Source of the DNA: Yuukianura sp. NJ FZ-2021
Lineage: Eukaryota
DNA length: 64,000 bases
Direction of reading: 5' to 3'
NCBI GenBank assembly: GCA_046563655.1
Contig: CM102285.1
Location: 7,440,001-7,504,000 of the forward strand
The notes below the pieces were generated by a model, which was given only the letters and a program-made list of their open reading frames with translations, was not told where the DNA came from and searched no databases. The position numbers were made by a program, and so were the translations under genes. Each line of letters starts with the position of its first letter. Positions within the stretch are counted from its first letter, which is position 1. This document shows, piece by piece, positions 11,130 through 33,760 of this stretch.

Positions 11130-12420
11130 AACCTCCTCGTTTTTCTGTTGAATGAAAAAACTCTATTGGCCATTCTAAAATACGCTCGGTTTGCGGTAGT
11201 AGCATGTAATCAGTAATAACGTCACATTTGTAAATTTCTACTAGATCGCCAGTATTTATAGCTCTGTATCCCGGACTACGCATGAGTGTCCTAACAAGTA
11301 AACTAGGTTGTCCACTTGCTGCAAGCATTCTCAAAAGTTGTAAATGAGATTTGTGTGATTGGCATACTTCTCTGTTTATAGATTGAATTGCAAAATCGTG
11401 TCTTTTGGATATTACTTCGTATAAATAGGTCAATTTTGCATTCACAAGTCCAGCGGTCCTCATCGTCTGAGGAATATTTGTGGTGTCTGTTGTTGTAGGT
11501 ATAATACCAGGAATAGTAATGAATGAATGAAGGTCAGTTCCGTTATCTACGGATCTTCTAGATCTCAAGTGCTCAGTAACCTTGAGTCGAGTTGCATTGG
11601 TGAAGGAAATTATTTTGTGGAATGTTCTATTAAATTGCATAAAGAAAAGTCCGTGCTCACTTCTGCCAAATTGAAGATCGCATCTAGTTGAAATACTAAG
11701 TTTGGTAATTGCAATTTCTTTGTCAGGACATGAAATTCGTCCATCAGTCAGTAAACAAGTGGTCGAGTCGCCTTCTTTCAACCGACAAATTCGCACTGAA
11801 TTTGGTAACCAGCAAACAACGCCGAATTTAGTTGGACAGGATCCGGTTCTGAAATTACACAGTTCAACAGTTTTTGCGTTGGTGATAATAGAATCATCAG
11901 CGTCATTTACCGTTATAGTCAAAGGGACAAGAAAGTAGTTAGTTATGGTATTAGTGTAAGTAGTAAGCCACCAATATTCAATTGTCAGTTGCAATTTTGT
12001 GCCAAATAATCCGTCGAGTAATTTTTCCAAGTGAAAGGTTTGAGGTTGTGGACTGCGGTGAGATCTTACCATATCTCTGCATTCTTTCTCAGTAACTGCC
12101 TCTTTGGATTTTAAAAAATTTTTCTGATTTGGATCCAAAAAAAGTCATGTATGTCTTAACTTCCTCACGGATTCGAAAGCATTCATAACCTTGGAAAGTG
12201 TTATGCGTAATATCGGGATGCCAAAATGTTAAGTCTATTAAAGTAGAAGGTTTAGTAGTATCAACCAAAGGACAAGAAATATCTTCTGGTAGCTTCCAAG
12301 GAATACCGGTAGTCCATCCGCGACAATAAAAAAGTTGAGAGGTTTTTGTGTCATGAGTAAGTGTGTCATCAAGTAAATAAATCTTTGATAGTCGCATTTT
12401 CTTGATTTTCTGCTTTACAG
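11130..12420 (-). pseudogene. Class III viral fusion glycoprotein relic G1 (chuvirus/gB-like, or env of an LTR element)
   Basis: ORFs 12089-12487 and 10972-12138 joined by a frameshift ~12120: GYEC...TFFG...VTEKECRDMV, CNFRTGSC...GVVCW, furin site RSRR, helix NAKLTYLYE...CQ, PSLLVRTL...GDLVEIYKC. Truncated before any TM anchor. Confidence 0.7.
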
Positions 12421-15582: not shown

Positions 15583-16822
15583 TTAGAGAGAGCAGCAATA
15601 AGATGCGACCGTCTCCGTCAGGATCTCAAATCGAACTCTCCTTGAAAAATCAATCACCACACCTTGATTATGCAAAAAATCATTTCCTAATAATACTTGT
15701 AAAGAAAAATTCGCCACCACCACCATTTTATGAATAATACGTTGATTGGCGATTTGAATATGGACCATGGACACTCCTAAGGACGGTGTCGCCGTATTCC
15801 CAATGCCTTTAAGTGTAATTTGCCTGTCAGGTTGTAAAATATTGTTTGGTTTTACAAACTTGTCATGAATAACTGATGTTTCTGCACCCGTATCTAATAG
15901 AAAATCTGTTTTATGTTGATTTACATAACCACTAACTTTTAAAAGTCCATTCATCCCAATATTACAACTAATGAAATCCTCCTGAGTTGTATCGATGTTG
16001 AAAGAATTGATTAAGGTATGTAGATGTGGAGTCGTATTGTGACTTATAATGCAAATGCAGGATTCAGAGAGTTGACCAATGGATTGACATGGGTCGCTTG
16101 TGTGGTAGGCCTCCCAACTGTCTGCGGAAGCTGAGGATTGGTCATGCCCCCCTTCCGCTGGCCGTTTTTTTTGTTGCAATCTACATGTACTATCGCTGTG
16201 ACCGGTAGATCGGTGGAGTGAACACCACTCGTTACTTTGGCAGACAGACGGAGATGGTTGTTGGGGTTTTTGGCAAAAACATGTCGCCTCCGAATGCGTA
16301 TTGGTATTATGGAATGAGCAAAACTGTTGTCGTGATTGATTTGGGGTGACGCTGGGACAGTTTGCTGCGAAATGTGAATCTGAGTTACATCGAAAACAGC
16401 GGCGACCATTCGGACAAGTAGCAGCAATATGTTGGTCTGAGTTACAGATAAAGCAGTTACCATTATTCCGCTGGGATCTGGGTGACCCAGAAAATCCACC
16501 TCGCTGCCCTCCCCTTGCGCGCACTGGTTTACTATATTCGCCAACTCGTGTGTTCACCCCACAATGTTCAGCGGTTGTATAGTCGGGTAAAATGTGTGGT
16601 TGTTTAGGTACAAATTCGGTAGTTTGTTGGGTAAGATACGTTTGCATTTGTTCAAATGACCTTATTACAACGTTCCATATTTTCTGCCTGATCGGCCAAG
16701 ATGGAAGTGGCTTGTGTCATTAGGTTTACCTCTTTCTGATGCAAAAGCATCTCGTTAGTTTCTTCAATGGAACGAACTGCTTTAAGAAAATCAGCGATCG
16801 TTTCAGGTTTTTGAACTTCGAG
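15583..16822 (-). pseudogene. Ty3/Gypsy gag-protease, 3' part (split by the Polinton)
   Basis: Two CCHC knuckles (CFICNSDQHIAATC, CFRCNSDSHFAANC), CxxH-H-C motifs, aspartic protease FLLDTGAETSVI...LLGNDFL; truncated before RT. Confidence 0.85.
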
Positions 16823-16913
16823 AGTAGAGAGTAAGTGAGGACTTCAGCACCCTCCTATTTTTAGAACAGCCACGGGGGTTAGTCGGCCGCAATATTGGGG
16901 AGGGAAAAACTCA
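16823..16913 (+). repeat. Left terminal inverted repeat (~91 bp)
   Basis: Identical to the reverse complement of the right end for 87 bp, then a 1-nt indel in an A run and CTCA. Confidence 0.97.
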
Positions 16914-17052
16914 AAAGTCCTTGTTTGAACTTGACAATTCCTAGAATTTTCCAACACCCGAGGCCTAACAAATTCCAAAACCTTTTAAACGAAAGTTCTT
17001 GTTTGAACTTGTCAATTCCTTGAACTCTCCAACGCCCAAAGCAAAAACAAAT
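16914..17052 (+). repeat. Left subterminal imperfect direct repeat (2 x ~60 bp)
   Basis: 'aaagt(c/t)cttgtttgaacttg(a/t)caattcct(a/t)gaa...ccaac' at ~16914 and ~16992. Confidence 0.75.
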
Positions 17053-17168
17053 ACTTTTGTGTATTACAAAGTTAAAAAGTTGTTCATTTTCAGCTTCTCT
17101 CTTGCCGCGTCAACAACTGAAAAAACTTTTTAAAACAGTAATTGCAAAGTAAATTTGTTATTGTCGAA

Positions 17169-17942
17169 ATGGCATATCAATTCGATTTCGATCGACTCCC
17201 ATACCTGTGCCAATTAGAAATATTTTCAAATTTGGACAGGTCTAGCGCTTTGCAGCTGGTTAAAGTATTTCCAGACTCCTTAGACATTCTCAAGCCAATA
17301 CTTGACAAGATGGGCGCCAAAGTTGCAGAGTACACCCCATTTATGATAAGTGTTGGTGAGACGCACATCGTTCATCTTGATTTCAATAAGAAACAAATGT
17401 TTAGAGTTGTGCTGGCAGGTCTAAAAAGTTTTCCGATTGGACGCGTCCTTACGGCGAAAAACTTTGTAACTGCGATTGCACCACACAGGACGACAGTCGA
17501 AATCTCGCTATTCAAAAATTGTTCCATCGAAGACCTCTTACCCCTCACCGAAAAATTTGACTTTGAGCGCGGGATTTTTCGGGATGACACTGTAATCAAC
17601 ATCACACCTCATCGCTACAGCTGCAGATACGAAACGTACGGCTGCAGATACGAAACGTATCAAGCCCTTGGAAGTATTGAAGACGCACGACATCGCGGGG
17701 AGAGAAATCAGGAACTCCGGCGGCTACTTCTGGAGTCATCCATTGAATTTGACAAAGAGTTGGAAGAATCTCATCGAAAATACCAATTAAAAATGCGAGA
17801 AGAAAAATTGCAACGTTTGCGCGAAGAAAAATTCCAACGATGGATTCGTCGTCGGAAGGAATTGAAACAATCTGCTGCTTTTTTTAAGCTAAACATATAT
17901 CGTCGTCGCTTGGCTCTTCAGCGTTTGAGCAAACGTAACTAA
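17169..17942 (+). CDS. Polinton-borne F-box-like protein with basic coiled C-terminus (257 aa)
   Basis: N-terminal FDRLPYLCQLEIFSNLDRSSALQLVKV fits the F-box pattern; E/K/R-rich C-terminus; AATAAA immediately after the stop. Confidence 0.7.
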   Translation: MAYQFDFDRLPYLCQLEIFSNLDRSSALQLVKVFPDSLDILKPILDKMGAKVAEYTPFMISVGETHIVHLDFNKKQMFRVVLAGLKSFPIGRVLTAKNFVTAIAPHRTTVEISLFKNCSIEDLLPLTEKFDFERGIFRDDTVINITPHRYSCRYETYGCRYETYQALGSIEDARHRGERNQELRRLLLESSIEFDKELEESHRKYQLKMREEKLQRLREEKFQRWIRRRKELKQSAAFFKLNIYRRRLALQRLSKRN

Positions 17943-18147
17943 ATAAAACGACAATAAATTTTTGAAATAATTAAATTATTTATAATGTTGTAATAAATGT
18001 TAAAAGTAAAAAATTTAAAAATTTTAAATATAAAGTAAATTGTATTCTTTATAATAAATTAAGAAGTTATAAAGTTAAAAAAAGTTGAATAAAAAAATCA
18101 AATCAAACAAAACAATTTTAAGACTGTTTAACGTTTTTCTTGACGGT

Positions 18148-19674
18148 TTACGGGTCACCCTTACAAATGCGGGCCTTCCTAGCATACTTGATAATAAGGT
18201 TGTATGTCTTCCGCACTCCAGCAAGGTCGATGTGGTTGTGGACATCAGCATTTCCATGTTCAGCGACCATTCGCGCAGCGTGACAAGCAATTCTTCCACA
18301 GTTGTTGGCCGGTCCCAATGATGAGTATAAGATGTTGCGATTAAAGTTGGCGTAGTCCCATCGAATGGAATAATTCATTTTGAATTTGTGGCGGAGAACT
18401 CTGTCCAGTTGAATTCTCACATTGAAGAGCCTTGCTGGTGCAAATGTGTCATAGAAGTATCCGCACCTAAAATTAAAAAACAGTATAATTAAGCAAATGC
18501 TAGCCCACAATGAAGTAAAATAATAAATGAAAACTTACCAATTTTTGATGTCAACAGCTACTAGTAGGATATGGCCTGGAATTTTCACGCTAACCAGCAC
18601 GATCTCAGTGTCCGATGGCATGGCCAAAAACGGTACATCAATAATGCCCAACACGTCCATTGTCGGGCTCATAAACGATGTCGCTCTTAGGTCGTAGTAA
18701 GGACAACCCAAAGCCGGCTGGATATCTTCCGACACGTTCCACTTCACACAACGCCATGCCTGCTCCGTCGGGATGTAGTGAATTTTTTTCCCTGAAGCTC
18801 TGACATCTTCCATCAGTTTCTACACAAAAACAGAACAAATTTATGATTAGTATTTAAAATTTAAAAAATATAAAAAAGTATAATTGTAAAATAAAACTCA
18901 ACTTACCGTCATGAATGCGATAAAAACAGTAGGAAAGGTTCCACTAGTCGGATTTTTCCGAAGCTCATCCACGTGAGATTTCGCCACCTTAACGACGCCG
19001 TGATCGTAGTACTTCTCTTTGCACTTGAGTGGGAATTCCCTTGCCCAGTACAAATCTGCAGCGGGGATTTCCGTTTTAATTTGTGCAGTGTCCGGAAGTG
19101 GTGTGTAGTTGACTGAATCCGTCCAGTCTGCGCGATGTTCCGGAAGGATATTCTTGAGCATGAAGTACGAATGTACTTCCTGGAGTCCGCGCTGTGTACG
19201 AACAATTCCGTTGACCATATTGATGAGCTCGTTGCGATCAGTGGTTGGGTTTCTGAAGTTTTGAAATAAAGTTAACAAATTGTCGTGTTTAAACTGTTTT
19301 TAAAATTGAAATTAACTGTTTTTAAAATTTAAATTAACTGTTTTTAATTTGTGTAATAAAGTTTTTAATGAAAAGCAAACTTACCTGATTGCTCTAAATC
19401 TATCGACGACTGCCGAGTAATCGACGCGAATCTCCCGAGGAACTCCGAGAGGTTTACCTCTCATGTCGAGGAGCAACACTTCCAAGATTTCTTCCCAGTG
19501 GTCGTAAAAGTACTGTGGAAGAGGCTGTTCCGCAGCAATAGCGTCGACATACTTTTGATTTTCACTGGCTTTGCGCATGAGTTCTTGAAGGGGCTGATTC
19601 TGCACTGGCACAGATGCTGGATTCAGCCGAATAAGCGGCGCTGGCGGTGGAACTAACGATGATGAAGATGACAT
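18148..19674 (-). CDS. 4-exon Ulp1/SENP-like clan CE cysteine protease (411 aa)
   Basis: Exons 19674-19385, 19252-18907, 18819-18539 and 18466-18148, all GT-AG and phase-compatible (1236 nt). Spliced product has GHILLVAVDIKNWCGYFYDTF (His, Asp) and NNCGRIAC (Cys). Confidence 0.75.
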
Positions 19675-20338
19675 TGTTTTGAACTTTAACGTTAAACGTT
19701 AATTTAAAAGTTTTTAAAGTTTTAAGCAAACTTTGCTTTACTTGAAAAAGTTTTAGTTGTTGTGTAGCTTTTGGCTGTGAACTGAATGTGAATGTGAACA
19801 TGCAGAACAAGCCACCCCCTCCACTTTGCTATTTCGAGATTGGAATTTTGAAAATTTAAAAAAAAAAAAAAAATTTCAGTTTTTTTACATTTTGTCACTA
19901 ATCAGTGCTTAAAGTACTGATTTCAACACACATTTGCCTGGCGAATCCGCTGGTGCAATTTGTTTTCACATAAACTTAATGCATTAAAAGTTACAGCCAC
20001 TTAAAGTCGCGCTTATTTTTAACACTAATTCGAACGTTTTTTCCATGTGGCTTATGCTTTTCAAAATTTAAAGACTCATAAAGGTTACTCCCCAACACAG
20101 AATTTGATGGGGAATCGAGCGCTGGTTTTAGTTTTCATTTAACGCTTCTCTGAAAAAAGTTACAACAGAAAAACCGATTTTTCAGTGACTTTTCAAAATG
20201 GATGTTGGAAACATAAATAAATTATAAGAACAACTGTCCTATAAAACGGCTTCTTAACATTTCATTGACACTTTTTTAACTATTATTAACAATGATATCA
20301 TTTTTTAGTGATTCTTCAGTGATTTTTCAGTGCTTTTT

Positions 20339-20521
20339 CAGAGGAAATTTTTAATAAAATTCGATTTCACATTTTGGAGCTTGTTTATTCTGATTATTTG
20401 ATTATTTATTAACTGACATTAACTATGATCCCATTTTTTAGTGATTTTTCAGTGATTTCTCAGAGGAAATTTTTAATAAAATTCGATTTCACATTTTGGA
20501 GCTTGTTTATTCTGATTATTT
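20339..20521 (+). repeat. 61-bp perfect direct repeat upstream of PolB
   Basis: 'cagaggaaatttttaataaaattcgatttcacattttggagcttgtttattctgattattt' at 20339-20399 and 20461-20521. Confidence 0.85.
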
Positions 20522-20598
20522 AATTATTTATAGCTAAATAACAACATTATTTTGGAAATTCACAAATGTATTTTACATAAATTCACAGCTTTGAAAAC

Positions 20599-23500
20599 AT
20601 GGCGAAAAGATCTGCATCTCCCGCTCCGGGTCCATCATCTAAGCGCGGATGTCACACATGTGAAATCTGCAACGAAAAGTTCCCATGCGCAAATCAGCTG
20701 CTCATCCACATTCACATTCAGCATGAAGAAGAGGACGAGACTGTCACCGAAGGAACAAAACAACTTCCACAGATGCCCACAGATGGCCCAGGCGTTCTTT
20801 CCATGTACCGTGAAATGAAATGTCCACCATGCAATCTGACATTTCCGTGTCGCGATGAAATGCAAAAACATTTTTACGAAGTTCATCCAGATTTTTTCTC
20901 TGATCTGACGCAAGACGGAGGTCAACTTCAAACAAATTTGGAGCCAATAACTGTAGAACCACTTTTCACATCGCTAAACACAGTGACACAATACCGTGCG
21001 ATATTTCAAGACTTCAAATGTGAAAATGGCGTAGATGAACGTGATTTTCTAAAGTGTGTCTACGATTCATCAGCAACATGTATCAAAAAAGACAGAAAGA
21101 AATGGAAAAACGTCAAAGTTTTCTTCTCTATGGTATGTAATTTTACAAAGTCTTATATCAACGGTACAGTCGAGACAAACCGCGGCTGTTTCACATCATT
21201 TCGCCATCTTGTTTACACTGATGAAAGTATTCCAAAGGTGTGGAATATTATGGGTCATCAGATGTCAAACCAAATTGAAAACTTTACGAATGAGGGAAGT
21301 GGGTGGGACTTGGCCTATATTTCCGAGTTTAAATTCGTCACCGCCAAATACCAATTTACCAAAATTGGAACTTTTATTGAAACGCCATTCCCTCTTTCCG
21401 AACACAACAAAACATTGTTAAACATTGACAATAGTGAAGTGACACCGTCAAACTCTCACAATCAGTGCTTCCTTTGGGCTGTTCTCGCTCATGATAAAAT
21501 AGTTGGAGCGACTCTTGGAAGAAATCGTTACAAAGTGGACAAGAAGGTCAAAACTTACGCCCCCCACGCATCAAAGGTAAACACTCAAGGTTTACACTGG
21601 CCAATGACACTACAGCAGCTCCCACGTTTTGAGCAACTCAATCCCGACATCTCAATAACAGTTCTCGGCTATGACATGGATGCTCCAAGTCCTCCACCGC
21701 GAAAAAACGATGCTACTCGTCAAAGGTCAAAGGCAGCGCAAAAGGAAGACCTCGACTTGTTCAAATGTATGCAGGAGAATATTTCAATCCTCTACAACTC
21801 GAAAGAATCCAAACAGATTCACGTGGACTTGATGTGTCTGATGCATGGCAACAACGCTCACTTTCTTCTAATCCGAAATCTTGAAGCACTAATGAAGCCT
21901 CCGAATTGTCACCGTACGTTGCACATTTGTCGCAATTGTCTTTCAAACTTTACACTTGAAAAAACGCTGAAAGAACATATTCCCTACTGTGCTGCGCTGG
22001 GCCTCCAAAAAGTTAAATACCCAGAGGGGGATAAGTGCAAGCTGAAATTTGACAAATGGGCACGTACTCAGCCAATTCCATTCCGCTTCTACGCAGATTT
22101 TGAAGCATTCCTCAACAAGTTTGACTCTACATGTGAACACGAAGTCTGTCGCCAACGGCATAAGGCGAAAATGACTGGATCAAAAGAAAAAGAAGTCAAG
22201 GAAAACACCGGTCGTGTTAATATACACAAACCATGTGGATATGCATGGGTTTGCGTTGACTTTAACGGTAACCGTCGCTATGGAGAGTGCTATCACATGA
22301 CAGACGATGACGAAGACGTGGCTGCACACTTTGTTGCGAGCATTCTCAGATACTCCAAGACTCTTCAGAAGGAAGTTGACGAATATGAGAGGATTGCTCC
22401 AAGAATGTTGGATCAAAACATGACCCGAGAACAGTGTGAAGCTTCAGAACGTGAAACAAAATGCTGTTTTTGTGAAAAAGCATTTTGTTTTGGTGAAACA
22501 AGAGTTCGTCACCACACACATCTACCACCTTTCAATTACATTGGAATGGCACATCAGTTCTGCAACATCGAGGCACAAATTAAAAAGGAATTTCCAGTAT
22601 TCCTTCACAACTTTTCTTCCTACGACGTCCACTTCCTCATCCAATCAATGGGGAAGCTGACAGAAGACAAAATCATCAAAAGCGTTGATGTCATACCGAA
22701 GAGTAGCGAAAAGTACTTGTGCGTGACCATCACTCCAGAGTATTCAGGAGAAGCAGAGGAAGAAGAAGACGAGGACGACTTGGTTGGGAACGCTAGAAGA
22801 AGACAAAAGTACAAACTACGATTCACAGACAGTCTCGGCTTCACTCTCAAATCCTTGGATAGTTTAGTGAAGGTAATGCGTCAGGACCCGAATGCCAAAT
22901 TCGGAATTACAAGACAGAAATTTCAGCAGGAAGTTAATAACGGTGGCAACATTGACCTCCTTTTTAAAAAAGGTGCATACCCCTATTCACTGATGAAATC
23001 GTGCGAGGATTTTGAGATGACTAGTCTACCGCCAAAGGAAGCATTTTTCAACGATTTAACCGAATCACCGATTCAAGATGAAGTCTACGAACATGCTGAG
23101 AATGTCTGGCGAAGCTTTAATATACAGAACATGGGTGAGTGGCATGACCTTTACGTTAGGCTTGACGTCTCACTGCTTGCTGATGTCATGGAGGGACTTC
23201 GAAAGCTGATGATGGACAGCTACGGTCTGGAACTGGGTCATTATTATTCACTTCCTATGATGGCAATCGATTGCGCTCTAAAAAAGTCTGGGGTTGAACT
23301 GGAACTAATCACAGATCCTACCATGCATTGCTGGTTTGAACGTGCAATAAGAGGTAAGTTTTTATTAAATTTTTACACTTTTATAAGTTGAACCTAACTA
23401 ACCTAACCTAAAAACTTTTCTTCTCAATTAGGTGGCTATGTCAGTGTGGGGTCACAACGTTCTGCAGTTGCAAACAATCCCTTTATGGCTGAGGAGTTTA

Positions 23501-24988
23501 ACCCAGAGAAACCGACGAGTTACATAACTTACATTGACGCAAATAATTTATATGGAAAATCAATGTGTCAGAAGCTTCCGGTTGCATCTTTTCGATGGCT
23601 GACAACCTCACAAATGGAACAAATTTTAGGGAACATTAACAGCTTTATGCTGGAAACGGACAGATGCGTGGATACCGGCTATTGGTTGGAGGTTGACCTC
23701 GAAATTGATCCCAAACTCCATGCGCAGTTAAATGACTATCCGCCAGCTCCCATCACGCGAACTGTTACGATGGATGAACTCTCAGAACATCAGCATAACC
23801 AAATTGAAGACCTCAACTCTGGGCCTGGATTGTTCAAAGTTAAAAAACTTGTTGCAGATTTGAACAACAAAGAGAGCTACATCCTTCATTATGAAATTCT
23901 CAAACAATATCTGGCGATGGGTGTCAAGGTTACCAAAATTCACAGAGGCGTTTCTTTTACTCAGAGTGATTGGATGAAGAACTTTATAGATTTTAACACG
24001 GAAATGAGGAAGAAGGCGACCAGCGATTTTGCTAAGGACTTTTGGAAGTTGCTCAATAACTCTGCATTTGGCAAGACTATTGAACAAGTTCGAAATCGGC
24101 AGAATGTTCGAATTGTAACAACCGTTGAGAAGGCTTTATACTACAACAAAAAGCCGACAGTTCAGAACGTAATTCCAATCAACGAAACAACATGTATTTT
24201 CGTGATGAAGAAGCTCCAAGTGACACTCAACAAACCAATTTTCACTGGAGTCACAGTCCTTGACCTTGCCAAGAGTATCATGTATCGACATCACAGAGAG
24301 GGAATGCAAGCTCGATATGGAGACAAGTGTCGTCTTATTTACACTGACACAGGTAAGTTCTATAAAATTAAATTCTTAATAACTGCAATAAGTTTACAAT
24401 TAATAGTTAAAAAACTCCAAGAAGGATTACAATTTTCTCTTTCTTGTTACAGATTCCTTCATTTATCACATTGAAACCAAAGATCTCTACCAGGACATGC
24501 TTGAAAACAGAGAGCTTTACGACATGAGCGAGTATCCAGCCGATCACCCACAATTTGGAAAGTTTCACGATCCGGCAAACAAGAAAGTCCTTGGAAAATT
24601 CAAAGATGAAGCTGCTGGCGCTGTCATTACACACGTCTACTGTCCAAGGCCAAAGATGTACACTATCCGATCCCTAAAGGTGGCACAAATCGACGGGGAG
24701 TACCAGAAGAAGCCGGATGGCGGTTGGCTCATGAAGGATGACTATACCAAGAAGGCAAAAGGAATAACCAAGACGGCAGTGAACGGACAAGTCAAGTTTG
24801 AAGACTATGAAAAAGTTTTGCAGGAAAACGTTCAAACGATGGTTACAATGAGGGGTTTTCGAAGTGTAGAACATCGAATTTTCACAGAGGTAACCATGAA
24901 GAGGGCTCTCAACGGATTGGACACCAAGAGATATGCTGTAGATAGTGTTAATACTTTAGCTTTTGGTCATAAAGATATTCCAAAATAA
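20599..24988 (+). CDS. polB: Protein-primed family B DNA polymerase, 3 exons, 1403 aa
   Basis: Exons 20599-23353, 23432-24352, 24453-24988. Exo motifs YADFE, HNFSSYD, LYVRLDV; Pol motifs IRGG, YIDANNLYG, KLLNNSAFGK, YTDTDS (restored by splicing). N-terminal C2H2 fingers, vOTU-like CFLWAV/HF, Endo VII-like CCFC...HHTH...AHQFCN. Confidence 0.95.
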
Positions 24989-25108
24989 TACTTTTAATTA
25001 AATCTTTACACTATTATATTTTTATATTTTGTGTTATATGATTTTTAATTGTATATTAAACCAGTAAATTTCTGAAATTGAGTTTAGTCGTCATTTGTTC
25101 TTTGAACC

Positions 25109-25984
25109 ATGCGTGTCTACTCTGCCTGTGGTAAATTATTTTCGCGTTCTGACGTTGCAAAGCGTCACGAGAAGACATGTTTTAACTGTTTCTCTAGATC
25201 TCCCACCACCGCCGCCGCCACATCCTGGGTGGTTCCAGCCATCGGTGGGGCAGGCCCCACCGTTGGAGGGAGTTCCACAGCCGCCACCCCCGCCGCCGCC
25301 CTTGCCACCGCCGCCACTCTACTTCAGCATCCACGGTCGGGAGACGATATTGACTTGCAACTTGTGGCACCGTTTACAATGTGTGTGAGCGGAATGACAA
25401 ACACAGGCAAAAGCACGCTTGTCAAGGAAATTTTGATTCGAAGAAACGAAGTTGTAAAAACTTCAAATGGAATTGCAAATGTAACTTATTGTTACACAGA
25501 GTGGCAGTCTGGCCTATTTGGAGAACTAAAAACAAAAATCCCTGGAATTCAGTTTGTTCACGGATTGCCCGAGAAATGGCATGATGGTACTGACAGACCG
25601 TCAATTATGGTTCTGGATGATTTAATGCATGAAGCAGGGAAGAAGGGAGAGGTTGGAGCAGCCTTCACGAGAACTTCTCATCACAGAAATGTGTCTCTGA
25701 TTATCTTGGTTCAAAATTTTTTTCATAAGAATTTGAGAGAAATTACACTCAACTGTCAGTATTTGGTTCTCATGAAGAATCCTCGAGACTCTGCGTTTGT
25801 TTCATGCCTTGGACGACAAATGAATGGAGGAAAAAAGAACGCTACAATGGACTTGGCATACAAGGAGAGCATGGCAAAGCCCTACGGCTATCTTTTAATT
25901 GATCTGACTCAATCACAAAAGGACGACTATCGAATTAGAAGTAGCATTTTTCCCGAAAATTGTTATGTTTATGTCAATGAATAA
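25109..25984 (+). CDS. A32/FtsK-like genome packaging ATPase
   Basis: Walker A GMTNTGKS, Walker B IMVLDD, SHHRNVSLIILVQN. Confidence 0.93.
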   Translation: MRVYSACGKLFSRSDVAKRHEKTCFNCFSRSPTTAAATSWVVPAIGGAGPTVGGSSTAATPAAALATAATLLQHPRSGDDIDLQLVAPFTMCVSGMTNTGKSTLVKEILIRRNEVVKTSNGIANVTYCYTEWQSGLFGELKTKIPGIQFVHGLPEKWHDGTDRPSIMVLDDLMHEAGKKGEVGAAFTRTSHHRNVSLIILVQNFFHKNLREITLNCQYLVLMKNPRDSAFVSCLGRQMNGGKKNATMDLAYKESMAKPYGYLLIDLTQSQKDDYRIRSSIFPENCYVYVNE

Positions 25985-26063
25985 ATAAAATTCAAAACAA
26001 AATGTTGTGTATTTCGAGTTGATTTATTCAAAAAAAATTTTTTTTTTAAAAATAAAGTGTATT

Positions 26064-26240
26064 TTACAATTCAGTAACTAAAATAGTTTTAGTATGTTGT
26101 TTCTTGGTTGATCCTCGTCTTGCAGTGGTTGAACAGCACATGCAGCTGATCTTGTTTTCGTCACAGACGGAGATGGTGGGGTCTTCTTTGCTTGCAAACA
26201 TCTTGGCCAAAAAGTATTCACAAACTTTAAAAAAGCACAT
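26064..26240 (-). CDS. Small Cys-containing ORF (58 aa) downstream of the integrase
   Basis: MCFFKVCEYFLAKMFASKEDPTISVCDENKISCMCCSTTARRGSTKKQHTKTILVTEL*; ATG 24 nt after the integrase stop; minus-strand AATAAA at ~26023-26028. Confidence 0.4.
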   Translation of the reverse strand: MCFFKVCEYFLAKMFASKEDPTISVCDENKISCMCCSTTARRGSTKKQHTKTILVTEL

Positions 26241-26264
26241 GTTTACTTGTCTCTCTCTGAATCG

Positions 26265-27266
26265 CTACTGATCCAATTTCAACAGCTGCTTGTCGTAAAA
26301 ACTACCCAAAATAGGGGTACCCTCAAGGTCTTCTAGCTTGTAAACGTATGGATTAGTTGCTATAACTCTCACAATTCGATAAACTTCGTCAATATAGTTT
26401 GTCGAGTAGCCCTTTTCAAACGTTTTTTTAATTCTGGCGACAAGGACGAGGTCGTTTACGTTGAGTTTAGGCTTTTTATAGTCCACTGCAACTTCCGGGT
26501 ACAAGTTGCGCCGTACTTCATCCTCATTCCTTTCAGTAACTTTGCACGGCGCCATTTTAATACTTCGATGATATGCATGATTGTACAGATTTTCAAAATC
26601 TGGCAATTTATCAACAAACTTTTTGGTTCTGTTATGTGTCAAGTAGCGCTGAATTTTCATGAATAGTGTGCGGATGAAACGTTCCACAATCACACATTTT
26701 AATGGAGAATGTGTCCAGAATAGTTTGATGTCTTCATGCTTCAGATACGTCTTCATGTGTTGATTAAGAAATTCAGAACCTTTGTCAACTTGTACTCTCT
26801 TTGGCTTTCCACCACTGCGCTCTAAAATTTTTTTAAATGCTGAAAGAACTACTGGTCCTGTCTTGTTTGGAGTTGCCTCGATCCAGCCTTGTTTTGAAAA
26901 AGCGTCAATAACCACCAGCAAATACCTAGAAAACAAATTCGAGTTTTTAAAAACCCTAACCTAACCTAACCCAACGTAACCTAGCCCAACCTAACCTAAC
27001 CTTTTTTTATTATTGGCTCCCGACATGTTTTGAATGTCCTTCAAGTCTGCACAATACTGTTCGTGCATGCCTCCAACATAAACTCTCCGACGTGGAAACC
27101 GATATCGAACTGGACGATGGAGTTGATAACTTGGAATTTGCTTCAAAATTTTCTTGACGCGGTGTGGAGACGCCTTAGTGTTTGAATCTTTTTGAAACCC
27201 AAATGCTCCAGAAAAACTTCCAGGTAGTAAAGTGTTTAACCATCGTTGTTTCAGATCGGTGTCCAT
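26265..27266 (-). CDS. int: Retroviral-like (rve) DDE integrase, 2 exons, 308 aa
   Basis: Exons 27266-27001 and 26925-26265 (75-bp GT-AG intron); CADLKD...YLLVVIDAFSK...QVDKGSEF...IVERFIRTL. No C-terminal chromodomain seen. Confidence 0.93.
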
Positions 27267-27331
27267 GGTGGAAATGAAATAAAAGGACGCTGCACAGTTC
27301 AATTTGTATCATTCAGTCTCTAGCAATCAAA

Positions 27332-27667
27332 ATGGCTGGAAGCAAAATCAACAAGCATCTTAATTTTCTCAAAAACTTGAATTCTCGCTCTGAAAAGAAA
27401 CGATCTTTGCATTTAAATAGTGCGAGTCCAGAACAAATTCGAGCTATTTGCGAATGTGCACACAACGTGTACAATGGACGTTTAGTGATTCCACCAAAAG
27501 CTATAAAACGACTCATTCCTCACAAAGATCACATCAGACGTCTGATAGCACGCAGAGGAAAAGCAGATCATAAGCGCCGTCTTCTTGTCCAACAGGGTGG
27601 ATTTCTACCATTGCTACTTGGTGCAGCAATTCCAGTATTAGGAGAACTTTTAGGCAAACTTTTATAA
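27332..27667 (+). CDS. Small basic core protein with GG|F cleavage site and amphipathic tail (adenovirus pX-like)
   Basis: Basic 111 aa ending QQGG-FLPLLLGAAIPVLGELLGKLL, resembling the adenoviral pX GGFLP motif; TATA-like element and TCAGT initiator upstream. Confidence 0.75.
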   Translation: MAGSKINKHLNFLKNLNSRSEKKRSLHLNSASPEQIRAICECAHNVYNGRLVIPPKAIKRLIPHKDHIRRLIARRGKADHKRRLLVQQGGFLPLLLGAAIPVLGELLGKLL

Positions 27668-27669
27668 AC

Positions 27670-28326
27670 ATGCCCACGAAATACAAAGTCATTAGTGATG
27701 AAGACTTTGAGCGCCTAATGACTCAAACTTCTAAACCAACTGAAATCGGCAGACTCGAGAGTGAAAAAAATCAGTTGCTCAATATTAAAGATTCGGAAGA
27801 AATTCAAAACAAGTTACTTCAAGACGTTTTACGACGATTGGCAGACAAGAAGAAACGTGAAAAAACAGAAAGTATTGTTAAATCCGTGCCTGAGCCGTCC
27901 GTGTCATCAGTGGACATCCCGCCCAGTCCATCGCCAGTTGAGAAATTTGACTTTGGTGGTCGTACAAGACTTGGAGTTCATCTTTTGCAGTTTTTTATTG
28001 ACAATGGAACCACACTAGCCTCAGGAATTGTAAACTTTGACGGTGGATCACTACCAATTTCTACATTTGATTCAATACTTAAAAAACTGTCAAATGGAAG
28101 ATGCAAAATTTCAAAGGATGAACTCGAACCAATAAAAAACTTTTTAACCTCAAAAAGATTTCCATTGTCTATCCTACCCAAAGCACACCTCCATCTCTTT
28201 ACGGGAGAAGACTCTGACGTGGCTACTCCTGGAAAAAATCGAAAAAGCATGCACAAATCTCGGAAACGACCTCGAGTGGATGACAGCTTTCTGGACGAAT
28301 GGAAGACCCCACCGAATTGGAAATAA
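27670..28326 (+). CDS. Polinton hypothetical protein (218 aa)
   Basis: Intact ORF starting 3 nt after the previous stop; coiled N-terminus, basic C-terminus. Confidence 0.7.
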   Translation: MPTKYKVISDEDFERLMTQTSKPTEIGRLESEKNQLLNIKDSEEIQNKLLQDVLRRLADKKKREKTESIVKSVPEPSVSSVDIPPSPSPVEKFDFGGRTRLGVHLLQFFIDNGTTLASGIVNFDGGSLPISTFDSILKKLSNGRCKISKDELEPIKNFLTSKRFPLSILPKAHLHLFTGEDSDVATPGKNRKSMHKSRKRPRVDDSFLDEWKTPPNWK

Positions 28327-28348
28327 ATTTAAATACAACAACAAAAAT

Positions 28349-28873
28349 TTACAATTTTATACAACATTGATTTATTATTTTGTGTTTAAATTTACAATTT
28401 GAATTCAATAAAGGATTTTTTAATATTACAAATTTGCGTACTTTTTTATCATTTAATTGTTTATTGGGAGAAAAGTGACAGTAAGTAGATAGAATACAAC
28501 AGCCATGCATCATTTTATACAAAAAGTAGATTGCATATTGCCCACAAACATTAGAGTCAAGAGCTTGCAATGGTCTAGTATTTTCCAAAATTTTACAAGA
28601 AAACTTATTTACAAAATTTCTAAAGTCAATAGGGTAAAAATCCAGTCCAAGTCCATAAGAGCAAAAGAAGATGATTGGTCCAGTTCTGCCTCCAATGTAG
28701 ATTGCCACCCAATGTTCTCCAGGATGATCAGAAGGCTTGTTATTTACAACCAAGTAGGCTGGAAAGTGAGCAATTGTTAGCTTTCCAAGTAGGTCACATG
28801 GTATTACATTGAAATATGCTCTTGTTCCGCGAGTCATATTTGACAAAAACTTGTAAATTTGAGTGGTGTCCAT
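28349..28873 (-). CDS. Adenain-like (C5) maturation protease
   Basis: GEHWVAI, FFCSYG, LQALDSNVCGQYAIYFL. Confidence 0.92.
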   Translation of the reverse strand: MDTTQIYKFLSNMTRGTRAYFNVIPCDLLGKLTIAHFPAYLVVNNKPSDHPGEHWVAIYIGGRTGPIIFFCSYGLGLDFYPIDFRNFVNKFSCKILENTRPLQALDSNVCGQYAIYFLYKMMHGCCILSTYCHFSPNKQLNDKKVRKFVILKNPLLNSNCKFKHKIINQCCIKL

Positions 28874-30174
28874 TAGTGTGAATAGTCTTTGAAAAACACG
28901 TTCTTTCCTTCGTCAATATACAGAGTAGATTGAAAGTCAGCGTGACAGACAACGTTCCAAGCCTCAGTGGTAGGTTTTGCAAACTGAACGACGATTTTTA
29001 TACTTCCGTGTCTTGGGGGACAGTAGCCTTGATTCATGTTTCTGAGGTTAAAAATGAAAAACGCCTTTCCATTTGTAAACTCGGAAAGGCTAATAGCAGG
29101 TCCTTCATTGCTAGCACACAGTCCAAGACCGCTAAACATTCCATAGTATGCTTCAGAAACTCGAACATCACCATCACTGTTGTACTGGTAAACCTGATGA
29201 TAAAGTTGTTCTCCGTTTGCTGTGACGGAAATTTGTCTCAATTCTGGAGGTTTAAAGTCAAATGGATTTGTAGTCAGAGTTCCGTTCATTTTTTCACTTT
29301 GAACTAGGCAAAGTATAATTCTGTCCGGAAGTAGTCCATTAATCAAGTTTTCATTCACATTCGACACAGTGCCAAGGGGCAAGCTGTATGTTTTCATCTC
29401 AATCCGTCGCATTGGGTAGCATGCCGGTTGTCCATTAGCCCACATTTTCAAATGACAATTCAAAATATTCGGTAACAGAGTATGTTTTTTAACTAAAAGT
29501 CGTGCTTCAGTAATGTTGATTTTGTAGCGATTTGTATTGTCTGCCTGAGAGTGGAGTGCAAATTCTTCGGTGGAGCGGTTGAAAGTAACTCTAATATCGA
29601 TTCCAGGAAGCAAGTAGCGAGTTTGTGCAAAGATGTCAGCAAACGGTCGCCCAATCATGTCCAAGCCCTTGGCTGCTAATTCTTGTCTCTTTTTGTGGGA
29701 AGTGTCAGTGTCACTCAAATTCTCTTCCTCTCTCAAGTAAAGAGCAGTAACTGCTTGTGTATCCTTGTAGTCTCCTCCATATGCAAGCACAGTCTCAATA
29801 TAGGCCCGATACGGGTAGAGTGACATGGTTGGAGTAATTTGTGTTTCATTTAGAAACACAGAGCACTGCTGAAACAAGGAATGTAAAAAGTTGTTGACTG
29901 GAGCGATTCGCATGATGGCTCTCTCGTCCATTTTATCACTATTTGCTTTTGAAATCTTGCAGCCAACATATAACAAAGTTTCACTTAAATCAACATAGTG
30001 AACGTCATTTCCTTTGATTTGAAAAGAAATTGGACCTCCATTTTCATTTAATGCTGACAATGGATGGTACTCAAACATTCCACTACTTTGTAGACTAACA
30101 TCCATTTCTGGTTCACTAAATATGTCGGTTTCACTTCTAACTACTTCTGGGTGAGGGGCGTGTTTGGAACTCAT
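28873..30174 (-). CDS. Double jelly-roll major capsid protein (433 aa)
   Basis: GPISFQI...YVDLSETLLYV, PVNNFLHSLF...LNE, YPYRAYIET, LPDRIIL, NPFDF, typical of Polinton MCP; size and gene position fit. Confidence 0.9.
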   Translation of the reverse strand: MSSKHAPHPEVVRSETDIFSEPEMDVSLQSSGMFEYHPLSALNENGGPISFQIKGNDVHYVDLSETLLYVGCKISKANSDKMDERAIMRIAPVNNFLHSLFQQCSVFLNETQITPTMSLYPYRAYIETVLAYGGDYKDTQAVTALYLREEENLSDTDTSHKKRQELAAKGLDMIGRPFADIFAQTRYLLPGIDIRVTFNRSTEEFALHSQADNTNRYKINITEARLLVKKHTLLPNILNCHLKMWANGQPACYPMRRIEMKTYSLPLGTVSNVNENLINGLLPDRIILCLVQSEKMNGTLTTNPFDFKPPELRQISVTANGEQLYHQVYQYNSDGDVRVSEAYYGMFSGLGLCASNEGPAISLSEFTNGKAFFIFNLRNMNQGYCPPRHGSIKIVVQFAKPTTEAWNVVCHADFQSTLYIDEGKNVFFKDYSH

Positions 30175-30599
30175 TGTTCTTCAAATATATTTCTTGGCCT
30201 CTTTTTCTTAAGAGTGTTTTTTGGTTTTCGTTTTTGCTTCCTCTTCCTTGAACGTCCAGATCCTGACTGAGTAGAAAGAATACCATCTGCGACGCCTTTA
30301 AGTACTCCCTTCCAAGCGGTCGAACCGTGTTCAGAAATAGCTTCCTTGACGGATTTTTTTCCACCAATCACGTCAGAAGCTATACCAGCGACAGCAGTTT
30401 TAGCATGAGGCATTAAATATTTGGTCACATATGGCAAAACTTTTCGAAAAATTGAGCCAAAAATTCCACCAATTCCGTGACCACGCTGACGAAATTGATT
30501 GGCTTTGAAGAATACAGCTCCGTCTGATCCAACAGCTCCTCCACGCTGGGGATTATAAATTCTAAAGAAATCGTCCTCGCTCAAGTTGCATTTGTACAT
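30171..30599 (-). CDS. Small core/membrane-active protein with protease sites and basic tail
   Basis: QRGG and QRGHGIGGIFGSIFRKVLP followed by amphipathic segments; K/R-rich C-terminus; located just upstream of MCP. Confidence 0.75.
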   Translation of the reverse strand: MYKCNLSEDDFFRIYNPQRGGAVGSDGAVFFKANQFRQRGHGIGGIFGSIFRKVLPYVTKYLMPHAKTAVAGIASDVIGGKKSVKEAISEHGSTAWKGVLKGVADGILSTQSGSGRSRKRKQKRKPKNTLKKKRPRNIFEEQ

Positions 30600-30664
30600 G
30601 TTGACAGTTTGACGTTTGAAAAGTTAATGATTGATAATTTTTGAGAGCGCTGTTTTTATACTCC

Positions 30665-31369
30665 TCAGTATCGCTTCCGTCGAAAGTGTAGAGTAGCAGA
30701 AAAGGTTCCAACTGTAAATGCTGGTGGATCGCCAGATTCAGTCATGATGTACATCCATATGTGGTCAATGTCGTCAAATACAACGTCTACGTATTGCAGA
30801 TGCTGAAACGAACGAGTCACAACCTTCTTATGGTCACCCGTATTTGAAATTTTTCTCAGCAGTGGCGCAAGGTCACCTCCCACGCGCTGGTTTTCAATTA
30901 TACTGCAGTAAATGAAAAGTTGTGTATGTCCACTCGGTTCAAAAACTTCATACTCAAAACTCTGTTTTCCTTCATCGTATCCAAGAATTTTAGTAGCCTC
31001 CTCGTTAAACCTTACAAAGGATTTGGTAGGTTTCTTGACAAATATGGCTCTCGAGTTTTTAATTTCAATTTGTACAAAATTATCCGATACACGTTTTGCA
31101 AGATCGTCTGCTGTTCGAATCAATGCAGCGTCTTCCGAGGAAATGCTGAGCAAATCAAAGAATGACCCGTTACCAACTTGTCGAAGCCATCCTTCCTTGT
31201 GAAGCATATACTCGTGATGAACATATGTACACTCTACTAACGCCACCTCGTATTTTACACCGTCTAAGCGAATTGATTCTGCAAAATGATTTCTAAAATT
31301 TGTAATTGTGTTCTCTGGATAGTGATTTGAAGAAGAATCACTCTGAAGAGTCACGTAAAAGTCTCCCAT
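30665..31369 (-). CDS. Minor capsid protein (penton, single jelly roll)
   Basis: FYVTLQSDSS..YPENTITNF...YEVALVE and LFIYCSIIENQRVG...PLLR, ending LHFRR. Confidence 0.88.
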   Translation of the reverse strand: MGDFYVTLQSDSSSNHYPENTITNFRNHFAESIRLDGVKYEVALVECTYVHHEYMLHKEGWLRQVGNGSFFDLLSISSEDAALIRTADDLAKRVSDNFVQIEIKNSRAIFVKKPTKSFVRFNEEATKILGYDEGKQSFEYEVFEPSGHTQLFIYCSIIENQRVGGDLAPLLRKISNTGDHKKVVTRSFQHLQYVDVVFDDIDHIWMYIMTESGDPPAFTVGTFSATLHFRRKRY

Positions 31370-31502
31370 GACTGCTAGTTTTAGACTAAAGATTTAAAAT
31401 GAAGAACGAGCGTTTAAATACCTTTTTGGTACAAGTCAAAAATTTATTTTTAGAATTCTTAAGACTAACAATTTTTTACAAAACAGAAATATTTCAAATT
31501 GC

Positions 31503-31919
31503 TTAAAATTTAGTGTCTTCGGCGATCCAGTATTTTCCCTCGACTTCGTCAGAGTCTTCTTCAGGAATTGTGTTCAAGCGGGACTTGAGAGATTTGCGGT
31601 TCCAAACAGCTTTGCTCATCGCTTCAGCCACAATGTCCATTTTCGGTTTCTTTGCTTGTTGACCCTTATCAGCGTAGCGCTCCTTACATTCCAACAGCAA
31701 TAGTTCAAAGTTAGGTAGCTCGCTTATTGGATTTCCCGTCGAAAGAAAGAAGAGAATCAGCTTTGAAACCAGAAATGGAATTTCCTTCATTTCGATTGTA
31801 GTGTAGTAGCGATCCTTCTTGATAAAGACTTTGTATTCTCCATCTTCCACCTTCCACCAGCATTTGACACGATCTTCAAGGGTCTTGCTCACGAATCCTG
31901 CAGCGTACGCTTCAACCAT
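31503..31919 (-). CDS. Polinton accessory protein, repeat-domain paralog 1 (138 aa)
   Basis: Intact ORF with TATA-like element and TCAGT upstream; shares a motif with 32312-33163. Confidence 0.6.
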   Translation of the reverse strand: MVEAYAAGFVSKTLEDRVKCWWKVEDGEYKVFIKKDRYYTTIEMKEIPFLVSKLILFFLSTGNPISELPNFELLLLECKERYADKGQQAKKPKMDIVAEAMSKAVWNRKSLKSRLNTIPEEDSDEVEGKYWIAEDTKF

Positions 31920-32311
31920 TGTAGTACTTGAGTAGTTTTTGAGGAGAAGTTTCAACTGAAGCTGAAATGAGACTGATGGTTTGTTGAGCAGTCGAGCAGC
32001 CTTTTTATCCCAAATTTTCAGGTAGAAGTTTGACCCTTTTTTCTATTTTTAGCAATTCCAACAACTTAGATTTCTTGGAAAAAGGATTAAACGAACAACT
32101 CGAAACGTTTTTCAACGGAAACGAGCCTTTTCCTAATTCTAGGAAAAATAAACGTTTTTTCGACTTTGTCTAAAAATAGAAAGGACTAAAAGTTCAACGA
32201 CTCTAAAACGACATTCTCAAAATAAAATAACCCAAACAACAAAAAATTCGAAAATGTACAAGTTTGAATTTATTCAAATACAAAAACTGCTACTAAAGTA
32301 GATTATACAAT

Positions 32312-33163
32312 TTAACAAAAAATGTCAAAAGCTGAAATTTGCTTAACACCATAAAAAATAATGTTGAGAACTGTATCATCAGAGTATGACGATTGACGAT
32401 ACATGTTAAGATGGACCAGTCTAAAGTGCTCGTTAAAGTCATGGTTTGGAGTACGTCTTTGGTTGTTAATTTGAATTTGTTGATGTTTGGTAACGTCCAG
32501 AACATGCTTCGAGTAGGCTGGATTTAAAATGAAAGACTCTGGCGATAAATAGCAGGCAAATCGGTGAAACACGTTTGGTTTTTTGTATGGATGAACTTTC
32601 TTGTTCGTCTTTAAACCGGCAGCCTTGCCAATTGTTTCTTTAATTCTGTTGGTACGAGTGTTGAGAATTTTATCGCGTAGCTTTCTCATGTATTCACGTT
32701 TTGACTCATGAATGAGCTCATCCAGATACTTTTCTGTATATGAGGTCGGAAAGCAGCCACACTTTAGAAGTGATTCCACCAGAAGAGGAATGTCCATGAT
32801 TTCGATGGGAAGTGGACGGCCGCTACGTATGAGAAACACCCGATTCGCATTGCCTGTGATGCAGTGGATAGGAAGAAGCGGTCGCTCCAGCTTTTCTTTG
32901 AGTGTTTGAAACTCTGCGGGTGACTGCTGACGAAATAACTTTAGGAATCCATTCTTGCGGTTAGTTGCCATGATTGTTTCAAAGTGTGGTAAATCCTTCA
33001 TCATTTCCCCTGCGGCTATGTATGCTTTTACTAGCTTTTCCACCACGGTTGGCAGTTCCTCTGCTGTCAGAAGAATCGAATGTCCAGAAATCTTGACTGC
33101 GATGACATCTTCCATGTCAATAAACGGTTCCGAAACCTCCATGTATGACCTGAATCCCCGCAT
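32312..33163 (-). CDS. Polinton accessory protein, repeat-domain paralog 2 (283 aa)
   Basis: Intact ORF carrying two copies of the motif found once in 31503-31919. Confidence 0.6.
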   Translation of the reverse strand: MRGFRSYMEVSEPFIDMEDVIAVKISGHSILLTAEELPTVVEKLVKAYIAAGEMMKDLPHFETIMATNRKNGFLKLFRQQSPAEFQTLKEKLERPLLPIHCITGNANRVFLIRSGRPLPIEIMDIPLLVESLLKCGCFPTSYTEKYLDELIHESKREYMRKLRDKILNTRTNRIKETIGKAAGLKTNKKVHPYKKPNVFHRFACYLSPESFILNPAYSKHVLDVTKHQQIQINNQRRTPNHDFNEHFRLVHLNMYRQSSYSDDTVLNIIFYGVKQISAFDIFC

Positions 33164-33375
33164 GCTTATAGTTTGAGACTGGTTTTCGAACTGATGATTG
33201 CTAGTCTCAAAACTCACTGTTTAAGTACTGCTTGGACAACGTTTGAAATGCTATTTTGAAATTTTTTCAAAAACGTTTTTCTAAAGAAATGTTATTTTGA
33301 GAACTTTTCAAGAAAAAACGTTTTTCTTGAGAAAAGATATTTTTCCAAGAACTCAATCCTTAACTAAAAATAAAT

Positions 33376-33516
33376 AAAAAATAATAACATTGACCCCAGT
33401 CTTGTATCTAAGTACTTGTAACTTCTTAACCACAAGCGTTGACCCGTGTGGGATTCGAACCAGCGGCCGTAGAGAAGTAGTTACAAGCACTTAGACACTA
33501 GGCTAGAGTCAATGTT
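33376..33516 (-). ncRNA. Putative Pol III-transcribed VA-like hairpin RNA (~130-140 nt)
   Basis: A-box-like TAGCCTAGTGT (33505-33495), perfect B box GGTTCGAATCC (33461-33451), T6 (33381-33376); the ends form a 38-bp stem with 4 G-U pairs and 2 mismatches. Confidence 0.7.
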
Positions 33517-33548
33517 CGAATTTTCTATACAAAAATTTCACTACTTGT

Positions 33549-33665
33549 TTTTTGTTGTCGACTTTTTTGTTATCGACATTTTTTGTCGACATTTTTTTTT
33601 GTTTTCGATCTTTTCTTTGTCGTCATTTTTGTTGTCGACTTTTTTGTTGACGACATTTTTTGTCA
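33549..33665 (+). repeat. Right subterminal degenerate tandem array (T-run + GTCGAC-like unit, ~13-15 bp)
   Basis: About 8 units such as tttgttgtcgac, tttgttatcgac, ttttgtcgac directly inside the right TIR. Confidence 0.75.
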
Positions 33666-33668
33666 TTG

Positions 33669-33760
33669 TGAGTTTTTTCCCTCCCCAATATTGCGGCCGA
33701 CTAACCCCCGTGGCTGTTCTAAAAATAGGAGGGTGCTGAAGTCCTCACTTACTCTCTACT
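33669..33760 (-). repeat. Right terminal inverted repeat (~92 bp)
   Basis: Reverse complement of 16823-16913. Confidence 0.97.

Follow-up and report, generated by a model that had tools for sequence, protein, structure and literature searches.

A spliced and conserved cargo gene in a Polinton of Yuukianura sp., possibly encoding a very divergent clan CE cysteine isopeptidase

Polintons, or Mavericks, are widespread virus-like elements, and outside nematodes their accessory genes are nearly unexplored. The locus described here raises the question of whether such an element, already equipped with a maturation protease of the adenain type, carries a second clan CE cysteine protease in the form of a gene broken up by introns. 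The locus lies in a 64,000-nucleotide (nt) stretch of contig CM102285.1 of the Yuukianura sp. NJ FZ-2021 assembly (GenBank GCA_046563655.1, positions 7,440,001 to 7,504,000 of the forward strand), hereafter the window, to whose numbering all coordinates refer. The candidate gene is a set of four open reading frames (ORFs) on the minus strand, 19674-18148, and the Polinton that hosts it encodes a separate protease of the adenain type. That the candidate is a real, conserved and spliced gene is, on its structure and conservation, close to certain. That its product is a clan CE-type isopeptidase is a reading in which, judged from sequence, belief and doubt are evenly weighted.

The gene had been assembled in a first-pass annotation of this DNA, which joined four short ORFs through three introns into a protein of 411 residues. 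Re-derivation from the sequence returned the same exon and intron coordinates and the same open frame. In order of transcription, the parts of the gene are the following.

19385..19674, minus strand: exon 1, residues 1-96 plus 2 nt, with the ATG at 19674-19672
19253..19384, minus strand: intron 1, 132 nt, GTAAGT..CAG, GC content 0.19, phase 2
18907..19252, minus strand: exon 2, residues 97-212
18820..18906, minus strand: intron 2, 87 nt, GTAAGT..TAG, GC content 0.16, phase 0
18539..18819, minus strand: exon 3, residues 213-305 plus 2 nt, with His295 (codon 18573-18571) in IPGHILLVAVD
18467..18538, minus strand: intron 3, 72 nt, GTAAGT..TAG, GC content 0.24, phase 2, separating the His strand from the Asp strand
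18148..18466, minus strand: exon 4, residues 306-411 plus the stop, with Asp312 (18450-18448) in YFYDTF and Cys362 (18300-18298) in NNCGRIAC

Joined, the exons amount to 1236 nt, or 411 codons and the stop TAA (18150-18148), and the ATG at 19674 is the earliest in the open frame. The four open frames, of 94-133 codons each, stand in DNA of 40% GC; exons 1-4 have GC contents of 0.50, 0.48, 0.48, and 0.46, compared with 0.16-0.24 in the introns and 0.40 in the whole window. All three introns begin with GTAAGT and end with an AG preceded by a T-rich tract. Splicing of exon 3 to exon 4 creates GHILLVAVDIKNWCGYFYDTF, with NNCGRIAC further downstream; the junction peptide described in the first-pass annotation was thereby reproduced, and with it the three residues, His295, Asp312, and Cys362, on which the protease reading turns. 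A tblastn search with the spliced protein found no paralogue elsewhere in the window. Since the lengths of all three introns (72, 87, and 132 nt) are divisible by 3, the whole gene lies in one frame that is interrupted solely by in-frame stops within the introns, and intron 3 holds just one of these (TAA). Intron-blind gene finders would overlook such a gene.

Conservation of the gene is seen in a single relative. An exhaustive phmmer search of 1.84 billion representative proteins, with the read-through of exons 3 and 4 as the query (the in-frame TAA entered as X), returned one match, P0002, of 104 amino acids (aa), with an E-value of 3.4e-4 and 34% identity. It is a single unnamed metagenome sequence, encoded on a contig of 1420 base pairs (bp), here called L001. 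The contig is about 30% identical to the candidate, and the similarity is found in all four exon equivalents with their order kept, the stretch similar to exon 1 lying at 124-336 and that similar to exon 2 at 490-855. When exons 1-4 were compared with L001 by Smith-Waterman alignment, the observed scores were reached by 1, 0, 0, and 21 of 1000 shuffles, respectively. Identity to exon 3 is 32-34%, and the PGH of that exon is retained. At the positions and phases of the candidate's three introns, L001 carries the donors GTGAGT, GTAATT, and GTAAGT, and its second intron reads GTAATT..CAG. Because L001 resembles the candidate across all four exons and agrees with it in the places and phases of its donors, the candidate gene is more than a product of chance. 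The contig retains the His (in PGHVF) and has IYDS at the Asp position, where the candidate has FYDT; it stops about 45 residues short of the Cys position.

One feature of L001 itself counts against its being intact. At 1217-1300, the donor of intron 3 matches the candidate, yet there is no AG at the expected acceptor, and the next in-frame AG downstream would remove the YDS strand; the copy is perhaps in decay, or else it may rely on an acceptor of an unusual kind. Further searches gave no additional relatives. A search with exon 4 for longer homologous proteins produced 42 candidates, none at an E-value of 0.001 or below; a viral-contig search gave nine pattern matches with exon 4 and seven with exon 3, none of them a relative; and tblastn of the spliced candidate against 71 viral loci (0.93 Mb) reached a best E-value of 1.7.

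What kind of protein might this gene encode? The first-pass annotation proposed an Ulp1/SENP-like protease of clan CE. The portion of that proposal which stood up is the order and spacing of the candidate catalytic residues, joined by the families that a language model names; a significant profile match and the oxyanion Gln did not materialise. Clan CE calls for a His, an Asp, Glu, or Asn, and a Cys in this order, the first two on adjacent strands and the Cys some 45-70 residues on, and His295, Asp312, and Cys362 occur in this order and at such a distance. From the His to the Asp the distance is 17 and from the Asp to the Cys 50, a Gly follows the Cys, and 49 residues lie beyond it. This spacing we take to equal that of yeast Ulp1 (His514, Asp531, Cys580) and of human SENP8.

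A second line of support comes from the Atlas, a language-model look-up that was queried separately with the products of exon 3 and exon 4. For exon 4, the first-ranked cluster has Peptidase_C48 in 18% of its members (0.91) and the third-ranked is ElaD-SseL-like_C (0.90), and the ten best family-bearing hits all fall within one clan. For exon 3, 24 of 30 hits are unnamed, and the only named families are Peptidase_C48 (rank 17, 0.88) and ElaD/SseL (rank 24, 0.86). It appears unlikely, on these sequence-derived hits, that two separate halves of a protein would point by chance to a family named in advance. The His/Asp/Cys motif and the Atlas result are not fully independent, because both draw on the same short features.

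The third line of support is the register of the candidate triad in profile alignments. The comparison employed our own hidden Markov model (HMM) of bacterial C48, built in turn from Pfam-verified C48 domains of ElaD, of the 8 among 401 bacterial genomes that match PF02902, and of the 120 listed among 199 database relatives. Under greedy hhalign alignment, His295, Asp312, and Cys362 coincide with catalytic columns H54, C71, and C110 of the Polinton protease family and, likewise, with columns H88, D108, and C143 of the independent bacterial C48 profile. By chance alone, 3 of 160 and 7 of 350 shuffles placed the triad in register, as did 5 of 296 natural decoys; not one of the 350 shuffles or of the 296 natural decoys did so on both profiles at once. 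The helix carrying the candidate Cys aligns with an ElaD-type helix at an E-value of 0.31 among 136 sequences, which is not significant.

A long series of results weighs against the clan CE reading, beginning with searches of the standard libraries. Neither PF02902 nor any other clan CE family in Pfam was matched at E-values up to 10 by the translations of the exons or by the exon 3-4 read-through; profile searches of NCBIfam and PHROGs gave no match for the candidate; and sequence searches of the PDB returned no clan CE chain. Two PDB hits of the read-through were discarded as artefacts of its hydrophobic, intron-coded insert. The dedicated HMMs were equally quiet. The spliced candidate scored 0.2 bits with the C48 HMM, a value matched or exceeded by 79 of 2000 shuffles and, among natural decoys, by 20 of 431; with the Polinton-protease HMM it scored -2.2 bits (249 of 431 decoys as high) and with the viral-protease HMM -1.9 bits (173 of 431). 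Nor did block HMMs centred on the His-Asp hairpin or on the Gln-Cys helix give any signal in the candidate. The positive controls worked: on the C48 HMM, 12 of 17 Polinton proteases, as well as 29 of 32 viral ones, outscored all decoys, and on the viral-protease HMM 83 of 104 C48 domains did so. Profile-profile comparison, too, links the known clan CE families with one another at 74-92% probability, and the hhalign scores of the candidate were equalled by 50 of 160 and 292 of 350 shuffles and by 45 of 296 decoys. Given profiles that are silent on the candidate and controls that work, the candidate, if it belongs to clan CE, must be far more distant from C48 than adenain is.

The alignments and the residues themselves add to these objections. 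A third profile was built from 33 viral proteases, all of which have the H, Q, and C and all but one of which (32 of 33) have the D; on this profile the candidate is out of register, and the catalytic Cys column falls on Cys251. The oxyanion Gln is absent before Cys362 (SSLGPANNCG); the first-pass annotation had already remarked on this, and indeed none of the eight residues preceding the Cys is a Gln. This residue is invariant in three reference sets, as Q137 in C48, as Q103 in the Polinton proteases, and in 33 of 33 viral rows. The Trp that follows the His is missing as well. As for the Atlas, its recognition values of 1885 and 1894 are below 2300 and its shared features (at most 158) below 170, scores which the Atlas itself rates as leads that may reflect chance or a distant relative, one third of shuffled proteins also yielding ten coherent hits. 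An AlphaFold2 model of the exon 3-4 read-through, made from only 3 alignment rows, reached a predicted local distance difference test (pLDDT) value of 37.5 and is unusable for fold comparison. Lastly, with one match among 1.84 billion representatives, the candidate is an orphan.

A few further comparisons were run with the same material. An hhalign comparison of the read-through alignment with the protease family covered nothing beyond the stretch coded by the intron, and a query alignment from two organisms gave probabilities of 0.2 and 0.1. Prediction of the exon 3 and exon 4 products as a two-chain complex scored 0.08, which counts neither way. Two other families of cysteine enzymes were considered and set aside. 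For a PPPDE/DeSI-type (C97) fold, in which the His likewise precedes the Cys, there was no Pfam match of any kind and C97 was not named by the Atlas; for the His-Cys dyad of clan CD (caspase-like), judged by eye, the Gly after the His and the hydrophobic block before the Cys are absent.

On the sequence criteria just described, the candidate is not to be filed under Peptidase_C48, because a match to the family model and the Gln were both looked for and neither was found. Membership in the wider clan is a different matter. Should that reading hold, the C-terminal 200 or so residues (about 213-411) would form a very divergent Ulp1/ElaD-like cysteine isopeptidase, in which His295 would open one strand, Asp312 would close the next, and Cys362 would lie where a helix begins. 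For its expression, the 411-aa protein would depend on a spliced transcript of its own, divergent from the polymerase gene. The putative enzyme would then strip ubiquitin or a ubiquitin-like modifier (SUMO, NEDD8) from proteins of the host or of the element, for example to blunt modifier-dependent silencing or restriction, and the processing of capsid proteins would be left to the adenain of the element. In a Gln-less active site, either Asn360 or Asn361 could assume the oxyanion role, or catalysis could be altered.

Among the competing explanations, the one that fares best is that the gene encodes a lineage-specific cargo protein whose fold is unrelated to clan CE and whose His, Asp, and Cys are coincidental, a genuine possibility albeit a minority one. 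It would account for profile tests that are uniformly non-significant although the positive controls work, for the one profile alignment in three that is out of register, for the joint loss of the Gln and of the Trp after the His, for Atlas scores in the lead range with low recognition, and for the orphan status with its one match in 1.84 billion representatives. It sits less easily with two non-overlapping pieces of the protein that have only clan CE families as their named Atlas neighbours, with a triad in register on two independent clan CE profiles, a result that none of 350 shuffles and none of 296 decoys gave, and with the retention of the His and of a YDS-type Asp in a relative of only about 30% identity.

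A clan CE-type fold could also serve another activity. Members of the clan that are of the YopJ type are acetyltransferases, and the candidate might be an enzyme of that sort, or else a modifier-binding pseudoenzyme or decoy. The missing Gln before Cys362 would suit such a protein. Acetyltransferase activity is also ascribed to some clan CE virulence factors in the abstract of one article (PMC13125535), which speaks for this alternative. On the other side, the candidate has the His, the Asp, and the Cys, Asn360 or Asn361 beside the Cys could form the oxyanion hole, and nothing was found in the candidate that points to the binding of acetyl-CoA or inositol phosphate; we regard a clan CE fold with a different activity as quite improbable. 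A non-functional locus, whether a decaying captured fragment or ORFs that merely appear to be spliced, is very improbable indeed, for even if the acceptor-less L001 is possibly a decaying copy, such an account is opposed by four frames of 94-133 codons separated by three canonical introns of matching phase, by the marked difference in GC between exons and introns, by the conservation, at about 30% identity, of the four exons and of all three intron positions, and by 100% identical element ends that imply a recent insertion.

The features that define the setting of the gene are the following.

16823..33760, no strand assigned: Polinton/Maverick element, 16,938 bp, with inverted ends, target duplication, and core genes
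17169..17942, plus strand: F-box-like ORF of 257 aa that shares the end-proximal slot with the candidate, the two lying tail to tail
20581..24988, plus strand: protein-primed DNA polymerase B (pPolB), in several ORF pieces, divergent from the candidate gene
28352..28873, minus strand: adenain-type protease, 174 aa, with His54, Cys71 (acid position), Gln103, and Cys110

The inverted ends of the Polinton (16823-16909 and 33674-33760) complement each other at 100% over their 87 nt, and the target duplication TCGAG flanks both of them at 16818-16822 and 33761-33765. An integrase of the rve family was matched at an E-value of 3.6e-10. The polymerase match (PF03175 on 22000-23388) has an E-value of 1e-5 and, at 25.1 bits, falls just short of the cut-off of 25.8, and the packaging ATPase is weakly supported by a match to Pox_A32 (E 0.0046) that lies below the cut-off. 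By eye, the YTDTDS-type motif of the polymerase is apparently split by a short intron between ORFs 23407-24474 and 24407-24988 on the plus strand. Because the 87-nt ends are 100% identical, they suggest that the insertion is recent.

The Polinton sits in the gag ORF of a minus-strand long terminal repeat (LTR) retroelement (15583-16843 and 33745-34215). Excision of the 16,938 bp in silico restores the gag frame, ...NLTALE joining directly to VQKPETIADF..., and library matches identify the gag and protease of the retroelement around the Polinton. The same retroelement has an env-like ORF, 10972-12144 on the minus strand, that matches the glycoprotein family PF24664 Monjiviricetes_fusion at an E-value of 1.2e-7, above the cut-off.

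The first-pass annotation had held that the element encodes a separate adenain, and this was borne out from several directions. The family of the protease, comprising the protein and the 16 relatives found for it, matches Peptidase_C5 in 10 of 17 members, and the family profile compared with the PDB ranks adenain 4piq (E 5.2e-5) and 1avp (2.1e-4) ahead of S273R of African swine fever virus (1.5e-3) and ChlaDub2 (0.012). An AlphaFold2 model of the protease has a pLDDT of 88.2, and its best Foldseek match is again the adenovirus protease 4piq (E 4.2e-7, template modelling score 0.70). This enzyme is unusual in its own right: residue 71 is a Cys (FFCSYG) where adenain has the acidic residue of the triad. 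The same substitution occurs in 13 of the 16 relatives, Asp being found only in P0005, P0006, and P0018, whereas among viral relatives at a greater distance the position is occupied by Asp in 32 of 32. A His-Cys-Cys arrangement in this lineage of maturation proteases is what the sequences suggest.

The candidate gene lies between the left end of the element (16823) and the polymerase (20581) and has three introns, and it is thus placed as Widen et al. describe for cargo, namely, as an intron-bearing gene between an inverted end and the core genes. By sequence and position, it is an accessory gene with introns that occupies the 'cargo' slot near one end of a recent Polinton/Maverick insertion. 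Its neighbour in that slot, the F-box-like ORF, has an N-terminus that matches the Pfam F-box at an E-value of 0.017, with 15.5 of the 20.5 bits that the cut-off requires; its C-terminus is basic and coiled, and no relative of it was found in the PDB. Although its Pfam match is below threshold, this ORF would fit a cassette directed at the ubiquitin system. One can imagine, although we consider it rather unlikely, that the two genes together constitute a ubiquitin/SUMO-directed cassette, the F-box-like adaptor (17169-17942) being paired with the founder of a family of Gln-less clan CE isopeptidases and the pair serving to evade modifier-dependent silencing or restriction. Were that so, a single 17-kb element would hold three ubiquitin-type proteases, the other two being the adenain and the OTU-like portion of the polymerase.

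A clan CE isopeptidase in this slot would give Polintons dedicated tools against the ubiquitin and SUMO machinery of the host, as are known from many large DNA viruses and bacterial pathogens, and it would represent a clan CE family that current profile libraries overlook. A separate Ulp1-like gene in a Polinton, in addition to the maturation protease, was not reported in the literature searched, although supplements, which lay outside the search, could list one. Should the reading of the fold fail, what is left is still of use, namely an orphan gene, conserved and spliced, as a mark of the cargo slot in an animal Polinton.

How, then, does the candidate compare with known systems? The nearest are the Ulp1, SENP, and NEDP1 enzymes (MEROPS C48, PF02902) together with bacterial ElaD and SseL. 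The candidate shares with them the order of His, Asp, and Cys, the spacings of 17 and 50, and a Cys-Gly at a predicted helix start; they are the only named Atlas neighbours of both of its halves, and its triad is in register on the bacterial C48 profile. It departs from C48 in having neither the Gln before the Cys nor the Trp after the His, in reading DT in place of DS, and in not matching PF02902. It scores 0.2 bits on the C48 HMM, whereas adenain-like proteins score up to 26.5 bits, and some 210 of its N-terminal residues show no recognisable domain.

The adenain-type proteases of Polintons, adintoviruses, and adenoviruses ('vUlp1', Peptidase_C5) would belong to the same clan as the candidate if the clan CE reading is right. 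Both have a PG(E)H preceding the His strand, and the greedy alignment places them in register. The candidate differs in its size (411 aa versus 174 aa), in its introns, in lying at the opposite end of the element, and in its score of -2.2 bits on the family HMM, and because of these differences it is not a recent duplicate of the adenain.

Ulp1-type proteases do occur in mobile elements that would not need them for capsid maturation. In one study, Ulp1 (pfam02902) domains are recurrent in Ginger1 transposases and Mutator-like elements, where they are suggested to act in transposition or in the ubiquitin/SUMO pathway (PMC2836005). The likeness to the candidate as read here is that of a mobile element with such an enzyme unneeded for capsid maturation; the difference is that Ginger1 and Mutator-like elements carry the domain as a fusion with the transposase, in a form that pfam02902 recognises, whereas the candidate is a separate Polinton gene that the model does not recognise.

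A parallel in genomic position is found in nematodes. According to the preprint (Widen et al., bioRxiv 10.1101/2022.07.12.499685), nematode Mavericks have an end-proximal region of 2-5 kb with intron-bearing cargo genes, which encode WASP serine proteases and KRMA kinases, typically with an N-terminal ubiquitin-like domain. As portrayed there, these genes bear introns, lie beside one inverted end, encode enzymes, evolve fast, and adjoin intron-poor core genes. The candidate shares the slot and the introns; it belongs to a different protein family, and the core genes around it also come in ORF pieces with introns.

Finally, ubiquitin-system enzymes of other folds have been described in the same viral world. 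Two articles report a vOTU deubiquitinase-like domain in Polinton pPolB (PMC11161782) and UCH-like accessory genes in viruses related to Polintons (PMC8502044). These enzymes are of other folds (OTU, UCH) and have other proposed roles, such as the release of the terminal protein; they likewise indicate that Polinton-like viruses have repeatedly come to encode cysteine proteases of the ubiquitin system besides their maturation protease.

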